Sequence record: PZ171033.1 | DNA from: a phage | DNA length: 64,000 nt | Strand: one strand, 5' to 3' | Part shown: one piece after another, positions 1,542 to 64,000 of the stretch | Position numbering within the stretch: position 1 is the first letter of the stretch | Layout: every line of letters begins with the position of its first letter | Translations under genes and position numbers: made by a program | Notes under the pieces: generated by a model | What the model was told of the DNA's origin: nothing | What the model saw: the letters and a program-made list of their open reading frames with translations, nothing else | The model's database searches: none

Positions 1542-4109
1542 ATGTTAGTTGCAGATACCAATGAAGTAGCTACCTCAGCGACACTGGGTGGCAAAGAAAC
1601 AATTGCCTTTGGCATCTCTGATGACCCGGCATTCTTTCATGTATTAAGTACTTCCCTGTATAACAATCCTACTTTAGCAGTAGTTCGTGAGACTATCTGT
1701 AACAGTTGGGATGCTCATATTGAAGCAGGTAAGACTGATACTCCTATTCGTATCACTATTGATACAGACAACTTTATTACCTTCCGTGACTACGGTAATG
1801 GCATCCCAGATGAACTCATTGGTTCCATCTATGGTGTTTATGGTGCATCTACTAAGAAGTCCAACAGTAGTGTTACTGGTGGCTTTGGTCTGGGATGTAA
1901 ATCCCCATTCGCTTATACAGATAGCTTCCAGGTTACTTCATGGAACCAAGGAAAGATGTCGGTATATAACGTAGCTAAGGCTGCGATTGAGAATGATGGT
2001 AAACCAGGTATTGTTCCTATTGTTACTGGTATTCCTACTGAGGAATCAGGTCTGGAAGTTAAACTCCAGTTAGGCAAACATGATTTAAATACCTTTATTC
2101 ATTACATCACATCAATCGTATTTAACGGTGAGATTAAAGCCGAGCTTAGTATCCCTAAACTCGTTAAAACGGAAGAAGGTAATAGTATTCAACAAGGTGA
2201 CTACACCCTACTGAGTACACTAGGTATGTCATTTGAACCTGGTTCATATGATATGTCTGATAGCTGGTATAAAGGCTATATGGGCAACAGTAACATATTC
2301 GTTCGTTACGGTAACGTAATGTACCCAATTGTATCCAGCCCAGCTAGTGAAGAGGCTGTAGGTCTTATCCTCAATTTTATGAATATCATTGGTGCTAACA
2401 ATTTAGTAGTTCAGGCTGCACCAGATACGCTGGCTATTGCTCCTAGTCGAGAAACGCTGTCTAACCAGAAGTTAACCGACGATGGTATTACTACTCTATG
2501 CGTAGATTTAGTAGACCGTATGGAGAAAGAGATTAAGGCTAAGATTCCTGAAGCCATTAAGCAGGTTGAAGAATATGCCTCTAAATCCCCTACTCGCTTC
2601 TGGGAATATCCATCTTTCCTACTTGCTGTTACAGACAAAACTGTTCAACGCTATATGTCCTCTAGTTTGTGGGCTAAACAACGTAAGCATTACATCAAGC
2701 ACTGGCGTAACTTATCCAATAAAGCATTATTAGCTCGTCCTGAATATGCAGGTCTTAAGAAACTGTATGGTAAGGCTATGAGTGCTCTTAAAGAGACTCG
2801 TGAAGAAGGTACATATTATCCATTTCATGAATTAGTATATCGCCATCTACACTTACCACAGCTTGCTGCTTTGAAAACCTCTGGTATTAAGTGGTCTGGT
2901 TACATAATGAACCAAGGTAATCGTGTTGACCTGGTGAAGGGTAGACTTACTGACTACTTTAAGATGTATCATAACTCCCATCAGGGTATTGGCATATTTA
3001 CTACCAAAAACGTTGTAGTTACTCGCCGTTTATCTGATTGTGCAGACTCTTTTTCATACTTCCCTGAGTACAATCGAGGTGATCTGGAGCGTACAGCTTT
3101 TGTTCACGTCGTTGGTCCTAAGAAGGGTGCAGCAGAAGAAGCTGTAGCTAAATTCACTGCCATGGGTTATCGGGTAATTGACTTTACTCAATATAATGAG
3201 TGGGACAAACCAACTAACTACCGTAGAGAACAGGCTAAGATAGCTGCTGAGAAACGTGCTAAGACAATAGCTGCCAATAAAACCAAAGCAGGAGGTAAAA
3301 CTAATGCTCTGATTTCATTGAATGCAGTTCTTGGTACTACTCCTGCATGGGGTAAAAGTGGTGATTTGGTATCTAAACCATTCATTGACGGGGGATTTGC
3401 TGACCCAAGTCGTCATGAGAAATATGGTTTCATTGAGGTAGAACAGCCTAAGTACTACGTACTAGCCAACCAGGTTAGTTCGGGTAGTCCTGTAACTGCT
3501 CAGATTGGAACCATGTGGAAGTGGTATGAGTTATCTGATGAGATGAAAGCAGAGACTGTTGTCTGTCGCAATCAAATCGAGGCTAACAAAGCCAAACGAC
3601 GTGGTGCTATTCACATTGATGACGTTCGTTTTAGAGAACTGATGTCAGTTATTACCAGTAAGGGATTCAAGAAATACGTTACTGAACATCGTATTGATAT
3701 TCTGGAATATATAGAACTGGATGACAGGGAATACTGGGAAATTCTAGACATACTGGGTCTAACATTCAAACCATTACAGAATCTGATTTTTAAACCAGAG
3801 TATGAATGGGCATATGACTTTTTACGAAATCGACCACATGACAACAAAGAAAAACTTGTTGAAATGGGTTGTATTAAGTCAGTGGATGACTTAGAGCCAT
3901 ATACAATGATGGTTAATCCCTGTAACCATAAGTACTTTAAAATACTTAATGATTACAAAGGATTATTCAGTTATAGCTGGGGTAAGAATGACATTCTACA
4001 GACGCTGGACTTAGGTAGTTTGGTCAAACACCTTAAGAAGAATCCAGAGGATATTCCTGGGTTTAAGTCCCTCTACCGTAATCGTCTAAATAAACTGAAA
4101 GGTAACTAA
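1542..4109 (+). CDS. rIIA: rIIA-like protein with N-terminal GHKL (Bergerat-fold) ATPase domain
   Basis: N-terminal motifs ETICNSWDA (N box), DYGNGI (G1), GGFGLGCKS (G2); 855 aa; followed by large partner ORF as in rIIA/rIIB pairs. Confidence 0.65.
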   Translation: MLVADTNEVATSATLGGKETIAFGISDDPAFFHVLSTSLYNNPTLAVVRETICNSWDAHIEAGKTDTPIRITIDTDNFITFRDYGNGIPDELIGSIYGVYGASTKKSNSSVTGGFGLGCKSPFAYTDSFQVTSWNQGKMSVYNVAKAAIENDGKPGIVPIVTGIPTEESGLEVKLQLGKHDLNTFIHYITSIVFNGEIKAELSIPKLVKTEEGNSIQQGDYTLLSTLGMSFEPGSYDMSDSWYKGYMGNSNIFVRYGNVMYPIVSSPASEEAVGLILNFMNIIGANNLVVQAAPDTLAIAPSRETLSNQKLTDDGITTLCVDLVDRMEKEIKAKIPEAIKQVEEYASKSPTRFWEYPSFLLAVTDKTVQRYMSSSLWAKQRKHYIKHWRNLSNKALLARPEYAGLKKLYGKAMSALKETREEGTYYPFHELVYRHLHLPQLAALKTSGIKWSGYIMNQGNRVDLVKGRLTDYFKMYHNSHQGIGIFTTKNVVVTRRLSDCADSFSYFPEYNRGDLERTAFVHVVGPKKGAAEEAVAKFTAMGYRVIDFTQYNEWDKPTNYRREQAKIAAEKRAKTIAANKTKAGGKTNALISLNAVLGTTPAWGKSGDLVSKPFIDGGFADPSRHEKYGFIEVEQPKYYVLANQVSSGSPVTAQIGTMWKWYELSDEMKAETVVCRNQIEANKAKRRGAIHIDDVRFRELMSVITSKGFKKYVTEHRIDILEYIELDDREYWEILDILGLTFKPLQNLIFKPEYEWAYDFLRNRPHDNKEKLVEMGCIKSVDDLEPYTMMVNPCNHKYFKILNDYKGLFSYSWGKNDILQTLDLGSLVKHLKKNPEDIPGFKSLYRNRLNKLKGN

Positions 4110-8893: not shown

Positions 8894-10858
8894 ATGCGTT
8901 ACATCACCTCTCAAGATACGGGTAAGTATCCTATTGCTATCCTCGGTCATCAAATCCGAAGGGAGGAGATGATTAAAACCTACCTGCTGCCTAATGACCT
9001 AAGCATGGAAGACTTCATCTTCATTGAACTTCATTCTGCCCCCGGCAAGAAGAAGACTCCTGCAAGGGAAATTAAGGAGTTCATACAGCAGGAACTGCAA
9101 CAGGTACTGGATGATGCAGAAACTCAATACATTATCTGTACTGATTCTGATTACTTCAAAATACTGACTAAAGAAGCTAAAGCAGAGGCTAACCTCGGCT
9201 ATGTTTGCGATTCAGTATGGGGTAAGCAGAAGGTTATCTATGCACCTAGCTACAGGCAAGTATTTTATGACCCACCTGTAGTGAAATCCAAGATTGCTCA
9301 GGGTATGGATGCATTACTTAACCACATACGTGGACAGTATGCTGAACCAGGTCATGGAATCATTGAATTTGAAGCCTATCCAGATACACCAGAGAAGATT
9401 AAAGCCTGGCTAGACCAGTTGCTTGAGATGAATAAGCCACTGGCTATAGACATCGAAGCATTCGGTTTAAAGCACTATAACGCCGGTATAGGGACAATTA
9501 CATTCTGTTGGAGTAAGACACAAGGCATAGCCTTTAATGTGGACTATGAGCCAATTAAGGGGGCTACTGAAGCTCCCTATGGGCGTATTAACAGGAACGA
9601 TGTTGTTCGTAACCTGTTACGTGAGTTCTTCATTAAGTACACTCAACGGCAGATGTATCACAACATTAGCTATGACGTGTACATACTTATCTATCAGTTA
9701 TTCATGGATAACCTGATTGATACGGAAGGCTTGCTGCATGGCATGGAAATCATGCTACGTAATTGGGACTGTACTAAGTTAATCACCTACCTGGCTACTA
9801 ACAGTTGTGCTGGTAATCACCTTAGTCTGAAAGAACAGGCTCAGGAATATGCTGGTAACTATGCTCAGGATGACATTAAAGACATTCGTCTTATTCCTAA
9901 TGAGCAACTGTTACGCTACAACCTCATTGATGGTTTGTGTACGTGGTACACCTACGAGAAGCACTGGGATACTCTCATTGCTGATGACCAACTGGATGTT
10001 TACAACAACATCTTTAAACCAGCCTGTGAAGACATTATTCAGATGCAGTTAACCGGTATGCCCATGAATATGGAAACCGTTAACCAAGTAGCTGAGGAGA
10101 TGGAAACTGACAGGAACCAGGCTCTGAAAACTATTCGTGAGTCTAAGCTCATGAAGAACTTCACCCTGATGCTTCGTCAGGAATGGGTAGACGATAAGAA
10201 TGCTAAGCTTAAGAAGAAGCAAGTAACATTGGCTGATTGTGACATCGAGTTTAATCCTAACTCCGGTCCACAATTGCAGAAGTTGTTATTTGACTATATT
10301 GGCTTACCGGTTCTTGGTCTTACTAAGAGCAAGCAACCTGCTACTGACGGTGACACTATTAAAGCACTGCGTACACATACGCAGAGTGAAGATGTTAAGG
10401 AACTGCTCAATGCACTTATCGACTATAAACTCGTGGATAAGATTATCACTAGTTTTATACCAGCTTTCAGGAATGCCCAACCAGGGCCGGATGGCTGGCA
10501 CTACCTATTCGGCAACCTCAATCTGGGAGGCACAGTCTCCGGTAGGCTATCGGCTTCAGAGCCAAATCTACAAACAATTCCATCCGGTTCTAAATATGCC
10601 AAGAAGATTAAGAAATGCTTCGAAGCTCCTCCTGGCTGGATATTTTGCGGTTTGGACTTCGCCTCGCTGGAAGACAGAATCTCTGCACTAACTACTAAAG
10701 ACCCTCAGAAGCTTAAGGTGTACATGGGTGTGACTGTTTATACAGTTACTATAGAAGGAGTTGACCATCATATCCGAGATGATGATACAATCGTTTATGA
10801 TGGTAAAACTTATACCGGTGAGGAGTTCTATGACGCTTTTACCTGTGGCCTTCTATGA
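8894..10858 (+). CDS. DNA polymerase family A, N-terminal part (3'-5' exonuclease + start of polymerase domain)
   Basis: Exo motifs DIEAFG and YHNISYDVY; polymerase motifs SGRLSASEPNLQTIP and LDFASLEDRI (motif A); terminates just before HNH ORF. Confidence 0.8.
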   Translation: MRYITSQDTGKYPIAILGHQIRREEMIKTYLLPNDLSMEDFIFIELHSAPGKKKTPAREIKEFIQQELQQVLDDAETQYIICTDSDYFKILTKEAKAEANLGYVCDSVWGKQKVIYAPSYRQVFYDPPVVKSKIAQGMDALLNHIRGQYAEPGHGIIEFEAYPDTPEKIKAWLDQLLEMNKPLAIDIEAFGLKHYNAGIGTITFCWSKTQGIAFNVDYEPIKGATEAPYGRINRNDVVRNLLREFFIKYTQRQMYHNISYDVYILIYQLFMDNLIDTEGLLHGMEIMLRNWDCTKLITYLATNSCAGNHLSLKEQAQEYAGNYAQDDIKDIRLIPNEQLLRYNLIDGLCTWYTYEKHWDTLIADDQLDVYNNIFKPACEDIIQMQLTGMPMNMETVNQVAEEMETDRNQALKTIRESKLMKNFTLMLRQEWVDDKNAKLKKKQVTLADCDIEFNPNSGPQLQKLLFDYIGLPVLGLTKSKQPATDGDTIKALRTHTQSEDVKELLNALIDYKLVDKIITSFIPAFRNAQPGPDGWHYLFGNLNLGGTVSGRLSASEPNLQTIPSGSKYAKKIKKCFEAPPGWIFCGLDFASLEDRISALTTKDPQKLKVYMGVTVYTVTIEGVDHHIRDDDTIVYDGKTYTGEEFYDAFTCGLL

Positions 10859-11375
10859 ACAACGGTATAAGATTTCCGATGAAGGTTTCATCTTAAATCT
10901 TGCAAACAATCAACCCCTAAAACCGACTCTCAATCCTAACGGATACCTTAAGGTTGGGTTAGCTAATGGGGATGGTACACATCACCAAGAGCTACTTCAT
11001 ATTCTGGTAGCTAAACACTTCATCCCTAATCCTTATGGCTATGAACAGGTGAACCATAAAGATGGTAATAAACTGCATTGTCATAAGGATAATCTGGAAT
11101 GGTGCTCTGCTACTCAGAATGTTGAACATGCACTTAAAACAAGGCTACGTCCTGGTTACATGTCTGCTGACGATAAAGAAAAGTATCTCTTTGAGGTGCT
11201 GGCAGGTAAGCAAGTTAAAGACATTGCTTTTGAAATAGGTAGACGTTCTGAAACTTTGCATAAGATGCTCAGAACTACTGCTGACCGACTTGGTGTTCGA
11301 AATGAGTGGGATGATGTTATGAGGAGAAATAGAAAAGATGTTGCTTTACGACAGCTTGCCAAAATCAACTCATGA
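10830..11375 (+). CDS. HNH homing endonuclease inserted within DNA polymerase gene
   Basis: HNH motif VNHKDGNKLHCHKDNLEWCSATQNVEH; strong RBS AGGAG 5 nt before ATG 10830; different frame from polymerase. Confidence 0.75.
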   Translation: MTLLPVAFYEQRYKISDEGFILNLANNQPLKPTLNPNGYLKVGLANGDGTHHQELLHILVAKHFIPNPYGYEQVNHKDGNKLHCHKDNLEWCSATQNVEHALKTRLRPGYMSADDKEKYLFEVLAGKQVKDIAFEIGRRSETLHKMLRTTADRLGVRNEWDDVMRRNRKDVALRQLAKINS

Positions 11376-12168
11376 CTTCACTGGCAAGAAAATTGACAAC
11401 GTAGTCAAAGCCGGGAGTTCATCAGGTTATGATGGGCACAGTCTTCGTGCATATGCTTACTTCGGTGAGCAGATGCCAGACATAGAAGACACGGTAGAAT
11501 CCATTAACTCCATTCAGCATAAGTACAAATCATTACGTAGTGACTCGAAGGCTCCAACCTTCTTGCTTACCTATGGTGGTACGTATATGGGCTTAATGAA
11601 AAACTGTGGCTTCTCTGAAGAGAAGGCTAAAACTACAGAGAAGCGTTATCACGACCTCTATGTAGTTAGTGACAGGTGGGTTCAGGCTAAGCTAGACGAA
11701 GCTGCCAAAACTGGTTATGTTACTGCCGCATTCGGTTTGAGAGTGCGTACTCCTTTACTGGCTCAGGTTTTACGTGGGACATGCAAGACTCCGTATGAAG
11801 CAGAAGCAGAAGGCAGAACTGCTGGTAATGCTTTAGGACAAAGCTGGTGTCTACTGAATAACCGTGCTGGTTCAGAATTTATGCGTAAAGTCAGAGCCAG
11901 TGAGTTCAGGTTAGATATTCGTCCTAGTATTCACATTCATGATGCTCAGTACTTCATGATTCGTGACAACATGGATACCTTACAGTTTACGAACAAGCAC
12001 TTGGTTGAAGCCGTTAACTGGCAAGATCATCCTGATATTGCCCATCCAGAAGTTGGTTTGGGTGGGGAACTATCCTTGTTCTACCCAACGTGGGCTAATG
12101 AGATTGAAATTCCAAATCACGCTACCCCAGAAGAAGTTCATCAAATAATTCAAAAGGCATTCGCATGA
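11338..12168 (+). CDS. DNA polymerase family A, C-terminal part
   Basis: GYDGHSLRAYAYFG, RSDSKAPTFLLTYGGTYMG (motif B / O-helix-like), HIHDAQYF (motif C). Confidence 0.75.
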   Translation: MLLYDSLPKSTHDFTGKKIDNVVKAGSSSGYDGHSLRAYAYFGEQMPDIEDTVESINSIQHKYKSLRSDSKAPTFLLTYGGTYMGLMKNCGFSEEKAKTTEKRYHDLYVVSDRWVQAKLDEAAKTGYVTAAFGLRVRTPLLAQVLRGTCKTPYEAEAEGRTAGNALGQSWCLLNNRAGSEFMRKVRASEFRLDIRPSIHIHDAQYFMIRDNMDTLQFTNKHLVEAVNWQDHPDIAHPEVGLGGELSLFYPTWANEIEIPNHATPEEVHQIIQKAFA

Positions 12169-15918: not shown

Positions 15919-16671
15919 ATGTCCGAAGTAATTCCCAATGATATGAACACTCAGCTAATCCTGATTGCAGGATTCTCAGCGAGTGGTAAATCAGCATCAC
16001 TGCGTAACATCAGGAACCAGGAACGCTGGCTCTATCTGAACACCGAAGCAGGTAAACGTCTGCCTTTCCGTAACAAGTTCAATACTTACAACATCGAAGA
16101 CCCTTATCAAATCTGGGAAGCATTTGATGTTGCATCTCCTAGTGGAGAAATGGCAGATGATGTTGATGGTATCATTATTGACTCAGCAACCTTTATGATG
16201 GATATGCTGGAATCCCAGTACGTGTTGCCATCTGCAAACACGCAGAAGGCATGGGGAGATTTTGCACAGTTCTTTAAGATACTGCTGCAACAGAAAGTCG
16301 TTAAGTTTGGTAAGCCAGTAATTATTACTGCTCATGCTAAAGACGAACTTGATGAAGCTGCTGGTGTAATGAAAACATTCATCCCAGTGAAAGGCTCTCT
16401 GAAGAATAACGGGCTTGAAGCCTACTTCTCTACTGTGGTTTACGCAGAACGTGTAGACATTAAAGAGCTGGAGAAGTACGGAAACAAGATGTTAGAAATT
16501 ACGGAAGAAGAACGTGACTTAGGATATAAGCACGTATTCCAGACCCGTCCAACCAAGAAGTCAGTAGGTAAACGACTTCGTTCCCCAATGGGTATGTTCG
16601 ATAAGTCTGAGACTTATATCGACAACGATGCCCAGAAACTCTTAGACCACCTGGCTGAATACTACGCTTAA
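15919..16671 (+). CDS. P-loop ATPase (RecA/AAA-like)
   Basis: Walker A GFSASGKS near N-terminus; 250 aa. Confidence 0.55.
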   Translation: MSEVIPNDMNTQLILIAGFSASGKSASLRNIRNQERWLYLNTEAGKRLPFRNKFNTYNIEDPYQIWEAFDVASPSGEMADDVDGIIIDSATFMMDMLESQYVLPSANTQKAWGDFAQFFKILLQQKVVKFGKPVIITAHAKDELDEAAGVMKTFIPVKGSLKNNGLEAYFSTVVYAERVDIKELEKYGNKMLEITEEERDLGYKHVFQTRPTKKSVGKRLRSPMGMFDKSETYIDNDAQKLLDHLAEYYA

Positions 16672-20693: not shown

Positions 20694-20769
20694 TACCCGG
20701 TAGGCTTAGTGGTAAAGCCCCACTAGTAAACCAACTAGGACGCAGGTTCGAATCCTGTCCGGGTAGCCA
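20694..20769 (+). tRNA. tRNA-like gene with encoded CCA (6-nt anticodon loop)
   Basis: Acceptor TACCCGG/CCGGGTA, D arm GGCT/AGCC, T arm GCAGG-TTCGAAT-CCTGT, discriminator G + CCA; anticodon stem CTAGT/ACTAG with 6-nt loop. Confidence 0.4.
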
Positions 20770-20774
20770 TTTAT

Positions 20775-20859
20775 GCCCACTTAGCTCAGTGGTAGAGCGC
20801 AGGAAAGCTTCGAGAGAACAAGGTGTCTGTGGTCACTGGTTCAAATCCAGTAGTGGGTA
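20775..20859 (+). tRNA. tRNA-like gene, 85 nt, no pairable anticodon arm
   Basis: Acceptor GCCCACT/AGTGGGT, canonical D arm TAGCTCAGTGGTAGAGC, T arm ACTGG-TTCAAAT-CCAGT; 36 nt between D and T arms with no 5-bp/7-nt stem-loop. Confidence 0.4.
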
Positions 20860-37944: not shown

Positions 37945-38787
37945 TTAGTTCAGCCCGTTGTTAGACTTCAGCTTGGTCAGAATGGTATCAATACTTGAGT
38001 TAGTGAAACCATTAGGTGGGTTCAAGCCTTCATCAATAGTCTTCTGTGTAATCCATGCATCGGTAAACAGCTTAGCTGCTTTAACTTCTGCATCTCGTTG
38101 GTAAGAAGTAATCTGTTGTGAATACAACTCTTTCTGTTTGCCAATAGAACCAAGAATAGGTAATGCATCAGAACGGGTTTCTTGGGTCTGTGCACGTTGT
38201 ACTTCATATTGTTCCTGTATCAAACGTTCTTGTGCAGGAAGAATTTTTTCTGAAGTATACAGTGCAGCACAGTACGTTTCAGACTCAGTAGCAATCTTCA
38301 TCTTAGTAAGAGCATACTCACTCTTAGCAGACAGTGCCTGAATCTTAGCCAGTACAAACTGTGCCTTAGACGTTGCCAGTTGAACACGTGCAGTAACTGC
38401 CTGAATCTGTGCCATAGCAGCAGCCCAGTATGCTTGGTCACGACCAAGTAAGAACTGAACAGCATTACTCATGCACGATTCCATCATAGCAATGTATGCT
38501 TTGGTGTATTCACCACCGGTAATACGGTTAGCTTTAAACTCAGCTTTAAGGTGATTGTGTGCAGATTCCATTAATGCATCAAACGTACCACTACCACCTA
38601 CTTCACGCGTAGTAAGTGATTCATTTGTTACTTTAGTAATAGCATCAAAGATTAGGGAATTATCACCACCAGGGATATCCCATTCAGGGCCAGACATATC
38701 AATGTCAGGAAGGGTAAAGTCATCACCCTTAGTTAACTCTTCTAGGAGTCGGTTAGCTTCTACCTCAGCAGAACAAGACATAATCAT
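37945..38787 (-). CDS. virion protein
   Basis: 280 aa in structural operon. Confidence 0.55.
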
Positions 38788-38857
38788 TCCTCTTGGTTCA
38801 AAAAGAAACGGCCCACGGAGTTACCCCAGTGAGCCGTGTTGAACTGTAGCTTATACG

Positions 38858-39496
38858 TTAATCGTTAAGGCTACCAGCAGCAATCTGTGCTTGAGCCAGT
38901 TGAGCCAATTCAGCTTCCGTCAACGGAGGCAGTACTTCAATGGAGAACTCACGTGCTTCTGTTGCACGGATGTCTGGTAAGCCATTCTTACCTTTACGAG
39001 TCGTAATGTTGATGAACTTACGCTCTTTAAGAAACTCATAGATACAATACGGAATATGATAACCATTGTCGGTTACTTCACCGAACGGAACAAACTTACG
39101 TACAGTACCCATATATTCGTTAGCTACGGTGATAATCTCACCCGGCAGGTCTTTCTTCTTAGGGTCAAGGTTCTGGATACGTACACGAATCAGTCGAGTC
39201 TGTTCTGCACGAATCTTCTGACCCAGGGTCATCTTCTTAACACCAGCTTCTTGTTTTTCACCAAGCGGGTTAACAGTAGCTTCTACTACTGGTTCATCTT
39301 TTACTTGTGCAGCTTCAATCTTCTCACGAAGCTTCTCAACGGAAATGTTGTTAGAGAACTTGATATTCATCAACGTTGCACGTTGCTTAAGAACTTCAAG
39401 TTCGCTAGGCATTGCAATATCGTTAACGGTATCTTCGTTGCCCTGTACGTTCACTTCTACGTCAGTGGTCGGTTTATCGTTAATGCTCATGTTCAT
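38858..39496 (-). CDS. structural protein downstream of capsid gene
   Basis: 212 aa. Confidence 0.55.
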   Translation of the reverse strand: MNMSINDKPTTDVEVNVQGNEDTVNDIAMPSELEVLKQRATLMNIKFSNNISVEKLREKIEAAQVKDEPVVEATVNPLGEKQEAGVKKMTLGQKIRAEQTRLIRVRIQNLDPKKKDLPGEIITVANEYMGTVRKFVPFGEVTDNGYHIPYCIYEFLKERKFINITTRKGKNGLPDIRATEAREFSIEVLPPLTEAELAQLAQAQIAAGSLND

Positions 39497-39527
39497 ATTT
39501 CCTGTGGTTCATTTAGTTTTATTAAGA

Positions 39528-39556
39528 GGGGGACTTATGTCCCCCTTGTTTTATTT
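39528..39556. terminator. hairpin terminator between capsid gene and next gene
   Basis: GGGGGAC-TTAT-GTCCCCC; U tract stronger on plus strand (TTGTTTTATTT). Confidence 0.4.
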
Positions 39557-39563
39557 CGGACTA

Positions 39564-40766
39564 TTACAGAGGAGCAACAGTCTTAATCAGAGCCAGACGT
39601 TCTGGGCGTTTAACCAGGATACCATAGTACCACTTGATAGAACTGAAGCCAGTTTCACCATACGGGTCATTACGGTCAGCAGTTTCTTTACCCGGCATCT
39701 TAGTCATGATGGTGAACTTAACAGACTTACCATCAGTCTGGAAGCCAATGGTAGAGAAGGAATCATCACCAACTACCAGCATCGGGAATACGTCGTAGTG
39801 CTCCTGACCAGATACCATAGAAGTACGGTAACCCGGGTTAGAACTAACCTGTGCACCAGCACCTGCCCAATGCAGCATCTCAGGAACCTGGATGATACGG
39901 AACTTATCAATACAACCGATTTCACCATTCATCAGTGTACCAGCATCAGCATAGTGCTGAACTTCGATGAATGCTTTGTTACCGAACAGGTCTTTCATCG
40001 CTTTCAGTTCTGGAACCAGTTCAGAACCAACGTACATTACACGAGTACCACCAAGTACTTTGGTATCTGTCAGTTTAGAACCAGTGATGATAGTAGTCTG
40101 GGTCGGAGTACGGTTCTCAGTAAGAATCTGGTCAAGACGCATCAGGTTCTTATAAGAAACTACAGACGGGGTAGAACCTTCACCGGTGATGGTAGCGTCA
40201 GAGACAGCAGCACCTGCATACAGTACAGTACCAGCAGCAGCCAGCAGGTCTTTCTGGAGAACAGCTTCAGTCAACTGTACAGCACCGTTCATCAGTTCAC
40301 GAGACAGGTGTTCTTTCAGTTGGTCATCAGAATCAAAGTCCAGGGACTCTTGAGTAAATTCGTAGAAGAAGCCGAACTTATGAATAGAACCTTCTCGAGC
40401 CAGACGAGTAAAGCCTACACGGTTAACACGACCACCATTCTCTGACAGCAGAGGCAGTTTAGAGGTGATATTACCAACGTCTTTAGAAGAACCATACAGG
40501 TTACCATTAACGATGGTAGCACCATTAGCATCAATACCCTGGTCGTTAATGTTCTTATCGTCGAGCAGAGGAACGTACTCATACACCTTAACAGTCTTAC
40601 CGTAGTTCTTCGGCATGTTAACGGTGTTAGCCAGAGGCATGAAATACTGATCTTTACGGGACTGAATAATAGCTTTCTTCAGCCAGTAATAGGTATTCAT
40701 CTGGTCGGAACCAGCACCATCAATGCTAGATTTCTGACCGTCAATTGGAGCGTTATAGTTTAACAT
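39564..40766 (-). CDS. major capsid protein
   Basis: 400 aa, position between scaffold-like and portal genes as in N4. Confidence 0.65.
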
Positions 40767-60751: not shown

Positions 60752-61128
60752 AGATTATGTCATTAGGTGACGATACCAATGCTTTACTTGGTGTATCTGC
60801 ACGTCCAATTATTATTGTTAATAAACATCGTGGTAAATCCGGTGAGTATATTGGACGTGGTTCACCGTTAGGCAATCCATTTGTCATTGGTAAACATGGA
60901 ACCAGAGAGCAAGTAATTGCTAAGTATAAAGTCTGGTTACAAGAACAGATTGATAAAGGTAATCCAGTTGTATTGGATGAACTTAATCGTCTGGGTAATA
61001 AAGCCATTGATGAGAAAGGGCTAGCCTTACAATGCTTCTGTTATCCGAAACCGTGTCATGGTGAGGTTATTAAAGAGAAGCTAGTGAAAGCTATGTATAA
61101 CTATTTTGTGGAGAATCCTAATGGATAA
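60748..61128 (+). CDS. DUF4326-like protein
   Basis: IVNKHRGKSGEYIGRGSPLGNPF and C-terminal CFCYPKPCHG. Confidence 0.5.
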   Translation: MKIMSLGDDTNALLGVSARPIIIVNKHRGKSGEYIGRGSPLGNPFVIGKHGTREQVIAKYKVWLQEQIDKGNPVVLDELNRLGNKAIDEKGLALQCFCYPKPCHGEVIKEKLVKAMYNYFVENPNG

Positions 61129-61306
61129 GCAATGCAAATGTGGTAAAGGCCATGTATCCCAATGGGATGGTAAATGTGGTCATTGCCGAACCAAGAAAGA
61201 ACAGCGTGACCATGAATATGCTCTTACTTACTTAGAAGTAACTCGTAAATACAACAATATGACCACACACGATGCTTATACTTACAACAGAGAGGCATGT
61301 AAATGA
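61121..61306 (+). CDS. zinc-ribbon protein
   Basis: CKCGKGH ... CGHC. Confidence 0.4.
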   Translation: MDKQCKCGKGHVSQWDGKCGHCRTKKEQRDHEYALTYLEVTRKYNNMTTHDAYTYNREACK

Positions 61307-61683
61307 AAGAAATCTTAGTATTCGGAAGTAATTTAGCAGGCCGTCATGGTGCTGGTGCAGCAAAAGTTGCATATAAGAAGCATGGTGCTCGTTGGGGTAT
61401 GGGCGTAGGCCATTATGGTTGCAGCTATGCAATCCCAACCAAAGACCAGAACATCAAATCTATGAAACTGGATGACATCAAAGTATTCGTAGATGCTTTC
61501 ATCCTATACGCAGCATCACACCCAGAGTGGGACTTTAAAGTAACACGCATTGGTTGTGGTTTAGCTGGATATAAGGATGAAGAAATTGCTCCTATGTTTG
61601 CCAATGCTACAGGCAATGTCATGTTTGACGAAGCCTGGAAGCCTATTCTGGGAAATGATTATATCTACTGGGGAACCTTCTAA
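61303..61683 (+). CDS. hypothetical protein, glycine-rich Rossmann-like N-terminus
   Basis: ILVFGSNLAGRHGAGAAKVA; family not recognised. Confidence 0.5.
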   Translation: MKEILVFGSNLAGRHGAGAAKVAYKKHGARWGMGVGHYGCSYAIPTKDQNIKSMKLDDIKVFVDAFILYAASHPEWDFKVTRIGCGLAGYKDEEIAPMFANATGNVMFDEAWKPILGNDYIYWGTF

Positions 61684-61943
61684 TGACATATGAAGAACTA
61701 TGGGCTGCTCAGGTCAGAGCCAGAGCACTCACACGGCATGACATCTATTGTGCATTACAGAACGAATTAAAGGGACGTACTAAGCTAGGTCACATATCAG
61801 GTTTCATTAAAATACCTATGCGTAGTCTAGTATGGCCTTATAAAGAAAAAAGTAATGAATTTAGCGGTAATGGTTTATATGTACGTATCAACTACCTTGG
61901 TCAAGAGAACAATATTCGTATTGCCTTTTGGACTAAGCGTTAG
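61683..61943 (+). CDS. small hypothetical protein
   Basis: 86 aa. Confidence 0.45.
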   Translation: MTYEELWAAQVRARALTRHDIYCALQNELKGRTKLGHISGFIKIPMRSLVWPYKEKSNEFSGNGLYVRINYLGQENNIRIAFWTKR

Positions 61944-61948
61944 GTAAT

Positions 61949-61963
61949 AGCTGCTCCGCAGCT
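61949..61963 (+). promoter_or_regulatory. 3-nt-loop hairpin, candidate vRNAP early promoter (or short terminator)
   Basis: AGCTGC-TCC-GCAGCT then TTTGG; upstream of RNAPII gene. Confidence 0.35.
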
Positions 61964-61996
61964 TTTGGTTATTAATAACATTTAGGAGAATATGCG

Positions 61997-62815
61997 ATGT
62001 ACTCATCTATTGAACATCAGAAGCAGCTTGAAGTCCTTTTTAACAAAAACCAATTACTGCCTCGCATGAGGAAGGAATTCGAGGACTCCAAAGAAATTGA
62101 CTTTAAGGCATTCGCTGCCTATTTAGAAATTGATTATAAGCTGCTCATTGATGCAATGGTGCAGATTGCCCTACATAAACGTGCTGACATCCAGACTATG
62201 ATTGGCTCTCTCATGAGTCACTCAGATGATGCTCAGTACATCGCTGACTGTCTGTATAAGATGGCAGAGAATGACTGCTTCAACTATGACCCTACCATCG
62301 ACAAGTTCGGTGTTATCTATGAGATTAGTGAAGATGTTCAGATGGAACTGGAAGCATTCCAGTATCCATTACCAATCGTCAGTAAACCTAAGCCTGTCCT
62401 GACTAACCGGGACACTGGTTACTATGAGTCTAAAGGCTCAATCATCCTCAAGAAGAACCATCATGAGATGGACGTCTGCCTTGACCACATTAACCGCATG
62501 AACAACCAACGTCTCTGTATTAACTGGGACGTTGCTAACTATGTAAAAGACTCTCGTCCTAACATGGATAAACCCAAAGAGGGTGAAACCCGTCAGGATT
62601 ATGAGAAACGTGTTAAAGCCTTTGAGAAGTACAGTCGTACTGCTAAGGAAGTAATGGAGTTAGTAACCAAAGAGGGCAATAACTTCTCGCTAGCGCATAA
62701 GTATGACAAGAGGGGCAGAACCTATGCCTGTGGATACCACATTAACTATGCGGGGACTTCATATAACAAGGCAGTGATTGAATTTGCAGATAAAGAACTA
62801 GTAAACGAGGATTAG
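61997..62815 (+). CDS. T7-like RNA polymerase N-terminal-half subunit (N4 RNAPII small subunit-like)
   Basis: YDKRGRTYACGYHINYAGTSYNKAVIEFA resembles T7 RNAP DWRGRVYAVS...; 272 aa. Confidence 0.7.
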   Translation: MYSSIEHQKQLEVLFNKNQLLPRMRKEFEDSKEIDFKAFAAYLEIDYKLLIDAMVQIALHKRADIQTMIGSLMSHSDDAQYIADCLYKMAENDCFNYDPTIDKFGVIYEISEDVQMELEAFQYPLPIVSKPKPVLTNRDTGYYESKGSIILKKNHHEMDVCLDHINRMNNQRLCINWDVANYVKDSRPNMDKPKEGETRQDYEKRVKAFEKYSRTAKEVMELVTKEGNNFSLAHKYDKRGRTYACGYHINYAGTSYNKAVIEFADKELVNED

Positions 62816-62816
62816 T

Positions 62817-63398
62817 ATGAAGACATGTTCAGTATGTAAGAAGAACTTGCCTCTGGACATGTTCAATAAACAGTCCACTGGCAAACAGGGTGTTAGGGCA
62901 GACTGTAAAGACTGCCTTAAACGCTTTATCCGTTCAAAACACGGAGTCATTAATCAGATGTACTCCGGTTGTATCAGTAGAACCAAGAAGAAGGGATTTA
63001 CTTCCGTATCCTTCACTAGGGAGGAGCTAGAGAAATGGGTATATTCATGCAAAGAATTTCACACATTGTATGACAAGTGGGTATTGGAAGATTATCCAAC
63101 TGCCTTGAAACCTAGCTTAGACAGACTGGATGATTACAAAGGTTATTCCCTGGATAACATTCGTATTGTTACAGCCAATACCAACGTAAAGAGGTACTAC
63201 TCTGATGCAATCAACGGCATCAATACTAAATCAGCTAAGCCCGTTGAGCAGTACTCACTAGATGGTGAATACATTAGGACATTCCATTCACTTAGTGCTG
63301 CTGCACGAAGTGTTAATGGTATACCTTCTAATATTAATCAAGTAATTAATGGTACGTATGCGCAAGCATATGGCTATAAGTGGAAACTAGGAGCCTAA
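62817..63398 (+). CDS. putative HNH-family homing endonuclease between RNAPII subunit genes
   Basis: N-terminal Cys4 (CSVC ... CKDC), PSLDRLDDYKGYSLDNIRIV core, C-terminal HTH ending GYKWK. Confidence 0.55.
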   Translation: MKTCSVCKKNLPLDMFNKQSTGKQGVRADCKDCLKRFIRSKHGVINQMYSGCISRTKKKGFTSVSFTREELEKWVYSCKEFHTLYDKWVLEDYPTALKPSLDRLDDYKGYSLDNIRIVTANTNVKRYYSDAINGINTKSAKPVEQYSLDGEYIRTFHSLSAAARSVNGIPSNINQVINGTYAQAYGYKWKLGA

Positions 63399-63399
63399 G

Positions 63400-64000
63400 A
63401 TGCAGATTTTCACAGCTAAAGAATATTTAAAAATTGATATTGCCAATTCTTACGGGCTGGATAAGAAGACATGGGATGAACGTATTAGCTGGTTCGATGA
63501 GAACGAAGCTAACCTGCTTAATCTGGTAGATGAAGCAGAAGAATCCGCACTGTTCTATGCAGGTGTAAACGCATGGAAAGATATGAAAGCCGGTAAGCCT
63601 ATCGGTTATGCCGTAGCTCTGGATGCTACATCATCAGGCTTACAGTTACTGGCTTGCCTGACTGGTGACCGTTCTGCTGCTGAACTGTGTAACGTAGTTA
63701 ACTACATGGGCGAGAATGGTAAGCCATTACGTCGTGATGCTTATACAGTTATCTATCACAAGATGCTGGACATCCTTGGTGAAGCATCACGTATTAAACG
63801 TAGTGACACTAAGCAAGCAGTTATGACTGCATTCTACGGTTCAGAAGCCAAACCTAAAGAAGTATTCGGTGAGGGTATCCGTCTCAAGACTTTTGAGAAT
63901 GTAATGGAAACGGTTGCTAGTGGTCCTTGGGCATTGAACAAGTTCTTACTGCAATGTGGTAACCCGGATGCTAACCGTTACGTATGGGTACTGCCTGACA
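63400..64000 (+). CDS. T7-like RNA polymerase C-terminal-half subunit (N4 RNAPII large subunit-like), 3' partial
   Basis: ALDATSSGLQLLACLTGD resembles T7 RNAP DGSCSGIQHFSAMLRD; AGGAG RBS; ORF runs off window end. Confidence 0.7.
   Translation, partial: MQIFTAKEYLKIDIANSYGLDKKTWDERISWFDENEANLLNLVDEAEESALFYAGVNAWKDMKAGKPIGYAVALDATSSGLQLLACLTGDRSAAELCNVVNYMGENGKPLRRDAYTVIYHKMLDILGEASRIKRSDTKQAVMTAFYGSEAKPKEVFGEGIRLKTFENVMETVASGPWALNKFLLQCGNPDANRYVWVLPD

Follow-up and report, generated by a model that had tools for sequence, protein, structure and literature searches.

The window analysed here is a stretch of 64,000 nucleotides of phage DNA (record PZ171033.1), identified by megablast (90-96% identity) as belonging to a G7C-like N4-family coliphage of Gamaleyavirus. 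At its end, three genes lie head to tail and are separated by spacers of 1 nt each (Table 1). The first of them, gp15, ends with a TAG at 62813-62815. The second is a 582-nt ORF that starts with the ATG at 62817 and stops with the TAA at 63396-63398. The gp16 frame opens with the ATG at 63400 and continues for 200 codons without a stop up to the window end. Profile matches indicate that all three are genuine genes rather than chance ORFs. Gene order and coordinates had been given in a preliminary description of this DNA, and comparison with the ORF list and the raw sequence confirmed them to the base.

Table 1. Features of the gp15-gp16 region of the window
Feature	Coordinates	Strand	Basis
gp15, small subunit of N4-type RNA polymerase II, 272 aa	61997..62815	+	phrog_2166, phrog_414, identity to G7C gp15
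Putative Shine-Dalgarno GAGGA of the endonuclease gene	62807..62811	+	read from sequence
Free-standing homing endonuclease gene (very probable), G7C gp15.1 orthologue, 193 aa	62817..63398	+	amino acid identity, omega, AF2 model
N-terminal zinc-ribbon-like CxxC...CxxC (C4, C7, C30, C33), predicted to bind metal	62826..62915	+	family alignment
Beta-beta-alpha-metal nuclease core, PacI-type motif P99 S100 x D102 R103...Y110...N114...N123	63111..63185	+	
C-terminal NUMOD1 / I-HmuI-like helix-turn-helix DNA-binding domain	63237..63386	+	
Putative Shine-Dalgarno AGGAG for gp16	63389..63393	+	read from sequence
gp16, 5' part, large RNA polymerase II subunit, C-terminal-half homologue, cut by the window end	63400..64000	+	phrog_2051, PF00940, phrog_414
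Haplotype tract, candidate disrupted/immune homing site with a putative recognition role	63405..63435	+	eight fixed differences

The gp15 product matches phrog_2166, 'N4-like RNA polymerase' (E 8e-116), while the gp16 product matches phrog_2051 (E 1e-91) and the Pfam model RNA_pol, PF00940 (E 2e-13). On the T7-type RNA polymerase profile phrog_414, gp15 covers positions 227-425 and gp16 positions 427-596, exactly contiguous with the former. Since these matches adjoin in order, the two products represent colinear, contiguous pieces of a single-subunit RNA polymerase, and the earlier identification of the flanking ORFs as RNA polymerase II (RNAP II) subunits corresponding to halves of a T7-like enzyme is borne out. 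The gp15 of the window shows 92-94% nucleotide identity to that of G7C, where the annotation assigns gp15 and gp16 to the phage RNA polymerase that carries out middle transcription. In N4, the same two genes are separated by an empty spacer of 47 nt, and the N4 RNAP II is reportedly a heterodimer in biochemical terms. The two-gene state is normal for N4-type RNAP II and is not produced by the inserted ORF.

The middle gene has close orthologues at the same position in other phages. Its 193-aa product is 94.3% identical to gp15.1 of G7C (AEL79623.1, 'putative HNH homing endonuclease'); the G7C gene likewise measures 582 nt and lies 1 nt from each of the same two neighbours. The corresponding proteins of PGN829.1, Bas96 and ST4 are 95-97% identical, and that of Moonfish is 86.5% identical. 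In GenBank, the close orthologues are labelled either HNH homing endonuclease or endonuclease VII, and the PGN829.1 and Bas96 records, like that of G7C, place the annotated gene between the RNAP subunit genes. All five of these G7C-type copies differ from the window gene in sequence only (dS 0.1-1.0). A comparative paper of 2013 listed five HNH homing endonuclease genes in G7C, none of them disrupting a gene (PMC3670811). An endonuclease gene at the gp15/gp16 junction is thus already known, being annotated in G7C and in public records, and the finding is real but ordinary. The literature searched yielded neither an experimental characterisation of any G7C-type copy nor a demonstration of cleavage or homing by the 193-aa protein or a close homologue. 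A family profile search among the 201 ORFs of the window returned only the ORF itself.

The 193-aa protein matches Pfam NUMOD1 over residues 141-174 with an E-value of 8e-8, above the curated cut-off, and falls into the PHROGs family phrog_1035, labelled 'endonuclease VII' (E 7e-29). The Pfam HNH models (HNH, HNH_3, HNH_5 and others) gave no match at E<=1, and His_Me_b4a2 was matched weakly in only 2 of 19 homologues. The AF2 model of the protein (pLDDT 91.7) has the beta-beta-alpha-metal fold. The ORF had been described as HNH-type, with an HNH or NUMOD-like domain to be expected in it. This is correct as regards the fold, which is that of the His-Me/HNH superfamily, and as regards NUMOD1, but not as regards the catalytic histidine or a match to any Pfam HNH model.

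In an alignment of 19 homologues (31-85% identity), the motif P99 S100 x D102 R103...Y110 x L112...N123 is invariant and N114 is kept in at least 90% of the sequences. The alignment contains no conserved His; Arg103 is present in 19 of 19 members. Among PDB sequences, the family profile matched best that of I-HmuI (1u3e, E 0.0095), with D102-R103 aligned to D74-H75 and N123 to N96, so that Arg103 occupies the position of the general-base His75. The match to PacI is weak (E 0.3) and not significant by sequence alone; motif and spacing are nevertheless identical, D-R-x6-Y-x3-N-x8-N corresponding to D92 R93 Y100 N104 N113, with D102 equivalent to D92 and N123 to N113. PacI is a His-Me finger enzyme without the His, in which a tyrosine of the omega loop substitutes for it and a single metal ion is held by Asp and Asn (PMC5714182; PMC4081073). 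By analogy with PacI, the metal is probably bound by Asp102 and Asn123 during catalysis by the 193-aa protein, with Tyr110 in place of His as the general base. The prediction of activity is tied to this analogy because the canonical catalytic His is absent. As judged from the conserved residues, the active site of the phrog_1035 family is probably PacI-like and the database label 'endonuclease VII' is probably wrong. Identity with T4 endonuclease VII was rejected, as the protein neither matches Pfam Endonuclease_7 nor shows the H-N-H resolvase motif. The IPA-HNH family (Barth et al. 2023) was rejected as well; it combines HNH with AP2, as in UE-S5a and Mimir124.

Both ends of the protein carry additional modules. 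The zinc-ribbon cysteines C4, C7, C30 and C33 are conserved in the family alignment, and the N-terminal region weakly matches Pfam Stc1 and the Hpy99I Zn region. The C-terminal DNA-binding domain is common to MobE, MobB and I-HmuI. The latter, a nicking HNH enzyme of Bacillus phage SPO1, is a homing endonuclease encoded in an intron, whereas the window gene is free-standing; besides having Arg103 in place of the general base His75, the 193-aa protein differs from I-HmuI by the added N-terminal zinc ribbon. As a homodimeric restriction enzyme, R.PacI (PDB 3ldy/3m7k; His-Me finger group 20) recognises an 8-bp palindrome. It has two Cys4 zinc sites and no NUMOD1, whereas the 193-aa protein has one CxxC...CxxC and NUMOD1; the second Cys4 site is missing, the PacI helix LACFICN being replaced by IVTANTN. 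Unlike PacI, the 193-aa protein probably acts as a monomer on a long asymmetric site. The mobE gene resembles the window gene in being a free-standing homing endonuclease gene (HEG) between two subunit genes of an essential enzyme, and it is expressed from the transcript of the upstream gene (PMC2988022), as is also proposed for the window gene. The two proteins are homologous in the C-terminal NUMOD1 region (42.6% identity over residues 122-189, E 7e-9, tblastn), the tblastn match extending neither to the nuclease core nor to the N-terminal zinc ribbon. Furthermore, mobE possesses its own internal terminator and nrdB its own middle promoter, whereas the HEG of the window has 1-nt spacers on both sides.

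The contents of the gp15/gp16 gap were compared using a query composed of 400 nt of the gp15 3' end and 400 nt of the gp16 5' end, which retrieved 56 records representing 41 named Gamaleyavirus phages. Within this genus, the gap is a slot of hypervariable content, ranging from about 55 to 671 nt in length (Table 2) in phages that are otherwise about 90% identical. The 193-aa gene is present in 5 of the 41 named phages, and about 88% of Gamaleyavirus genomes are without it. Relatives lacking the insert, with which a comparison had been proposed, therefore do exist: the slot is polymorphic, and in two phages (EC1-UPM and phi G17) it is empty. One site is thus contested by three different endonuclease genes and several small ORFs. 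No degenerate remnants of the 193-aa gene were detected in HEG-less slots by tblastn at E<=1e-5, which returned only seven near-identical records together with the distant matches in HK2 and pSb-1.

Table 2. Contents of the gp15/gp16 slot in Gamaleyavirus phages
Slot length (nt)	Phages	Contents
~55-56	EC1-UPM, phi G17	empty
157	CU10EC	small ORF
197-208	many phages	53-aa ORF, phrog_15352
289-291	many phages	79-aa ORF, phrog_5444
438 and 467	E20, F22, IME11, 24-32N	small-ORF combinations
524-552	UE-S5a, UE-M3, UE-M6, Mimir124; PW8 and PD205 by length only	168-aa HNH_3+AP2 endonuclease
584	G7C, Bas96, Moonfish, PGN829.1, ST4, window	193-aa gene
667-671	HK2, pSb-1	204-aa phrog_1035 relative, 31-32% identical (tblastn)

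Most of the other alleles share a conserved element directly 5' of gp16, CCAATAAGCAGGCTCTCCATAGTGGGGAGCCAAGAAGCAAAAGGAACATAAA followed at once by the ATG, which was found in PhAPEC5 (207-nt slot), HK2, EC1-UPM (56-nt slot), PBM-2, E20, IME11 and CU10EC. It forms a hairpin of 9 bp with a 3-nt loop (dG -17.2 kcal/mol, z -3.3), in which one stem pair varies between C-G, T·G and T-A across alleles, and the ribosome-binding site AAGGAA lies 3' of the hairpin. An analogous but shorter hairpin is present in N4 and in the UE-S5a/Mimir124 type. In the G7C-type allele, the whole element, hairpin and AAGGAA, is lost, and its place is taken by the AGGAG within the last codons of the endonuclease gene. The GAGGA preceding the endonuclease gene is embedded in the same way in the last codons of gp15 (AAC GAG GAT TAG t ATG). 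It occurs in the slot alleles with an endonuclease gene, while small-ORF and empty alleles have GAAGA or an internal ATG.

The presence of the 193-aa gene is also accompanied by a distinct start of gp16. Binned identity between the window and the alleles without this gene is 60-73% over gp16 nt 1-60 and rises to 90-100% beyond nt 60. Eight fixed differences (gp16 nt 6, 7, 12, 27, 28, 30, 34 and 36) separate all six G7C-type alleles from all nine others, and none was found beyond nt 60 in the same comparison. The gp15 side is mosaic without a clean boundary; its last ~150 nt are divergent, and E20 has a recombination breakpoint in the gp15 3' region. Such a flank pattern is the expected footprint of homing, i.e., co-conversion together with an immune, disrupted target. 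Because the substitutions linked to the gene fall within gp16 nt 6-36, the gp16 start is the likely homing site, and the recognition site likely lies in this region. The linked haplotype could also stem from a divergent donor lineage instead of selection for site immunity. A scan of 61500-64000, which is uninformative for N4-type promoters, revealed no internal promoter and no terminator belonging to the endonuclease gene; the single promoter-like site in this interval is fewer than in shuffled sequences.

The full length of 193 aa is retained in all six phage copies of the gene and in about 18 metagenomic clusters. Pairwise omega of the endonuclease gene amounts to 0.05-0.13 with dS up to 1.0, which is comparable to the 0.01-0.09 of gp15. 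These values indicate strong purifying selection on the endonuclease gene (omega ~0.1).

Taken with the domains, the patchy presence and the flank haplotype, the earlier reading of the ORF as a mobile endonuclease gene between the RNAP II subunit genes is essentially right. The 193-aa ORF is very probably a free-standing homing endonuclease gene that would be co-expressed with RNAP II and home into HEG-less alleles. It combines a nuclease fold with a DNA-binding module, shows presence/absence polymorphism at a fixed locus, lies outside any intron or intein and has flanks with a co-conversion or immune-site signature. According to the proposed mechanism, the gene would be transcribed with the RNAP II operon and its translation would be coupled to that of gp15, as its ribosome-binding site lies in the last gp15 codons; in turn, gp16 would take its ribosome-binding site from the HEG. 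When a HEG-less relative infects the same cell, the enzyme would bind through NUMOD1 and nick or cut the HEG-less allele, most likely around the gp16 start, over the hairpin and ribosome-binding element and gp16 nt 1-36. The HEG-carrying genome would then serve as the template for recombinational repair, by which the gene would be copied with its immediate flanks. The HEG-carrying genome itself should be immune to its own enzyme, since it lacks the intergenic element and has eight substitutions within gp16 nt 1-36.

An improbable alternative is that the protein has been domesticated as a DNA-binding or accessory protein that does not cut, for instance, one that regulates or assists RNAP II, or that serves in competitor-phage exclusion without homing. 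Purifying selection as strong as that on gp15 would fit such a role as well, as would the replacement of His by an invariant Arg, the persistence of the lineage beside gp16 across genera and the predicted coupling of translation within the RNAP II operon. However, absence from most Gamaleyavirus genomes and the existence of empty slots mean that the gene is dispensable. The PacI catalytic equivalents D, R, Y, N and N are all invariant with identical spacing, the linked flank haplotype is a classical homing signature and unrelated endonuclease genes use the same slot, all of which favour a homing endonuclease. A decaying, inactive relic of a past invasion that is drifting to loss might account for the missing canonical His and for the lack of a Pfam HNH match. 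This is very unlikely, being strongly disfavoured by dN/dS and by the full length of all copies, and the His-to-Arg change is family-wide and accompanied by the conserved PacI-type Tyr. Still less credible is an intron- or intein-borne endonuclease with gp15 and gp16 as exons or exteins of one polymerase gene, despite the group I introns in gp16 of relatives (L014; sub-threshold in pVco-5 and XC38) and the rare fused single-chain homologues, because the non-coding sequence is just 1 nt per side, an Rfam scan of 61000-64000 gave no match at E<=1, intein motifs and Pfam intein matches are absent, every allele including the empty-slot ones and N4 keeps the gp15 stop and the gp16 ATG, and the N4 enzyme is, as mentioned above, reportedly a heterodimer.

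Relatives of the homing endonuclease gene were found far outside Gamaleyavirus. Homologues with 39-49% amino acid identity lie immediately 5' of gp16, with spacers of 0-22 nt, in the Vibrio phage pVco-5 and in the metagenomic N4-like contigs L014, L021 and L022, the gp15 and gp16 of these contigs being 50-58% identical to those of G7C. The L022 slot also holds an HNH_3-AP2 ORF. More distant family members (38-45% identity) are located in unrelated modules. One lineage of the family is thus tied specifically to the gp16 5' junction. In pVco-5 and XC38, gp16 itself contains other phrog_1035 ORFs at about residue 140-144, flanked by sub-threshold group I intron signals. The gp16 of L014 contains a clear group I intron (RF00028, 79.7 bits) with an HNH_3 ORF near residue 343, and that of Moonfish probably has the same arrangement. 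In the window, an Rfam scan of the whole sequence at the gathering threshold detected two tRNAs and nothing else.

Settlement of HEGs next to essential phage genes is well documented in T4, ICP1 and other phages, and the window gene is one more HEG beside such genes. The side results are of modest value. If the active site is PacI-like, phrog_1035 would be a natural source of His-Me nucleases that depend on Tyr and recognise long sites. The gp15/gp16 slot, where three endonuclease types, several small ORFs and empty alleles occur, provides a compact system in nature for studying competition over a homing site. It also lends itself to studying the changes that an invader makes to the signals from which an essential gene downstream is translated.

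A further question concerns the origin of the split polymerase. In a search of 1.84 billion representatives with gp15, 146 of the best 150 homologues examined end at the same point, i.e., have the split form, and in the remaining four, the two parts are joined seamlessly in a single chain of 648-703 aa. The fusions are probably secondary, since the NJ tree places the fused forms at scattered positions between split ones; a fused ancestral state in this clade is not supported by the tree, which carries no dating information. That an endonuclease gene created the RNAP II split is speculative and improbable. Equally tentative is the broader proposal in which phrog_1035 is a large clade of PacI-type (His-less, Tyr-dependent) HEGs with one lineage tracking the gp16 5' end, and the heterodimeric RNAP II goes back to an ancient insertion of an endonuclease gene or intron into a single-chain T7-like polymerase gene, the slot having since served as a landing pad. 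A split by insertion would agree with the presence of 39-49% identical homologues 5' of gp16 where the polymerases are only 30-58% identical, and with the occurrence of further family members in probable group I introns of gp16. The prevalence of the split form (146 of 150), the empty slot of N4 and the scatter of the four fused forms speak against it.

In the more distant N4-like contigs L021 and L022, several genes lie together between gp15 and gp16, and this slot is therefore able to reach about 1.8 kb. The gp16 gene itself is interrupted in other N4-like phages. In the metagenomic contig L014, the break is clearly due to a group I intron (RF00028, 79.7 bits) that comes with an HNH_3 ORF; the gp16 of Moonfish probably carries the same interruption. 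In pVco-5 and XC38, phrog_1035 ORFs divide gp16 near residues 140-144, and the intron matches there are sub-threshold (36-38 bits). Single-chain fusions of gp15-like and gp16-like halves are rare among the metagenomic proteins (P0048, P0109, P0142 and P0154; 648-703 aa). Their junctions are seamless (e.g., ...ELPSEHGLEVLTMDIAGSFGLDKK...), and in a rough NJ tree the fused forms are dispersed among the split ones.

A conserved hairpin, GGCTCTCCA-TAG-TGGGGAGCC, followed by an AAGGAA RBS, directly precedes gp16 in seven phages (PhAPEC5, HK2, EC1-UPM, PBM-2, E20, IME11 and CU10EC). It has a 9-bp stem and a 3-nt loop (z -3.3), and one stem pair displays the compensatory series C-G, T·G, T-A. A shorter analogue is found in N4, UE-S5a and Mimir124 (L003, L004). 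The element is missing from the window at 63340-63399. This hairpin may act in translation control, RNA processing or stability. Another hairpin, AGCTGC-TCC-GCAGCT followed by TTTGGTTATT, was noted at 61949-61963 of the window, where it separates gp15 from the ORF before it, whose stop is at 61943. This second hairpin resembles a terminator, or might instead be a hairpin signal of the N4 type.

The preliminary description called the RNAP II endonuclease a second mobile endonuclease targeting a core enzyme gene. The first one thereby implied is probably an insertion of ~700 nt at about 10723-11424, which parts two DNA polymerase ORFs and is absent from Bas96. The motif in the ORF inside it (10761-11375), VNHKDGNKLHCHKDNLEWCSATQNVEH, is canonical and HNH_3-like. 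The insertion yielded no group I intron, even at E<=1. The locus may hold an intron that escaped detection, or it may encode a true genes-in-pieces polymerase.

Features of the RNAP II and DNA polymerase loci
Feature	Location	Content
Slot	L022 330-2062	HNH_3-AP2 ORF, 120-aa ORF, phrog_1035 endonuclease
Slot	L021 400-2195	four small ORFs, phrog_1035 endonuclease
gp16 interruptions	L014 5617-5871; L015 (Moonfish) 3516-3809; L005 3582-4439; L006 782-1707	
Hairpin + RBS element	L009 (EC1-UPM) 1876-1931; also before gp16 in L002, L008, L010-L013	
DNA polymerase locus	window 8894-12168	two ORFs either side of insertion
DNA polymerase ORF 1	window 8894-10858	654 aa
DNA polymerase ORF 2	window 11338-12168	276 aa

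In Bas96 (L020), a Sak4-like annealing-protein gene at 38380-39928 is annotated as two-piece and intron-containing, with a "restriction endonuclease" ORF within. The window at 16250-16252 lacks the roughly 800 nt seen there, which thus represent a further mobile element that some members of the genus have and others lack. Two neighbouring tRNA genes were detected at 20694-20859 of the window (Rfam, 39.3 and 53.9 bits); tRNA-Val is annotated at the homologous place in Bas96.
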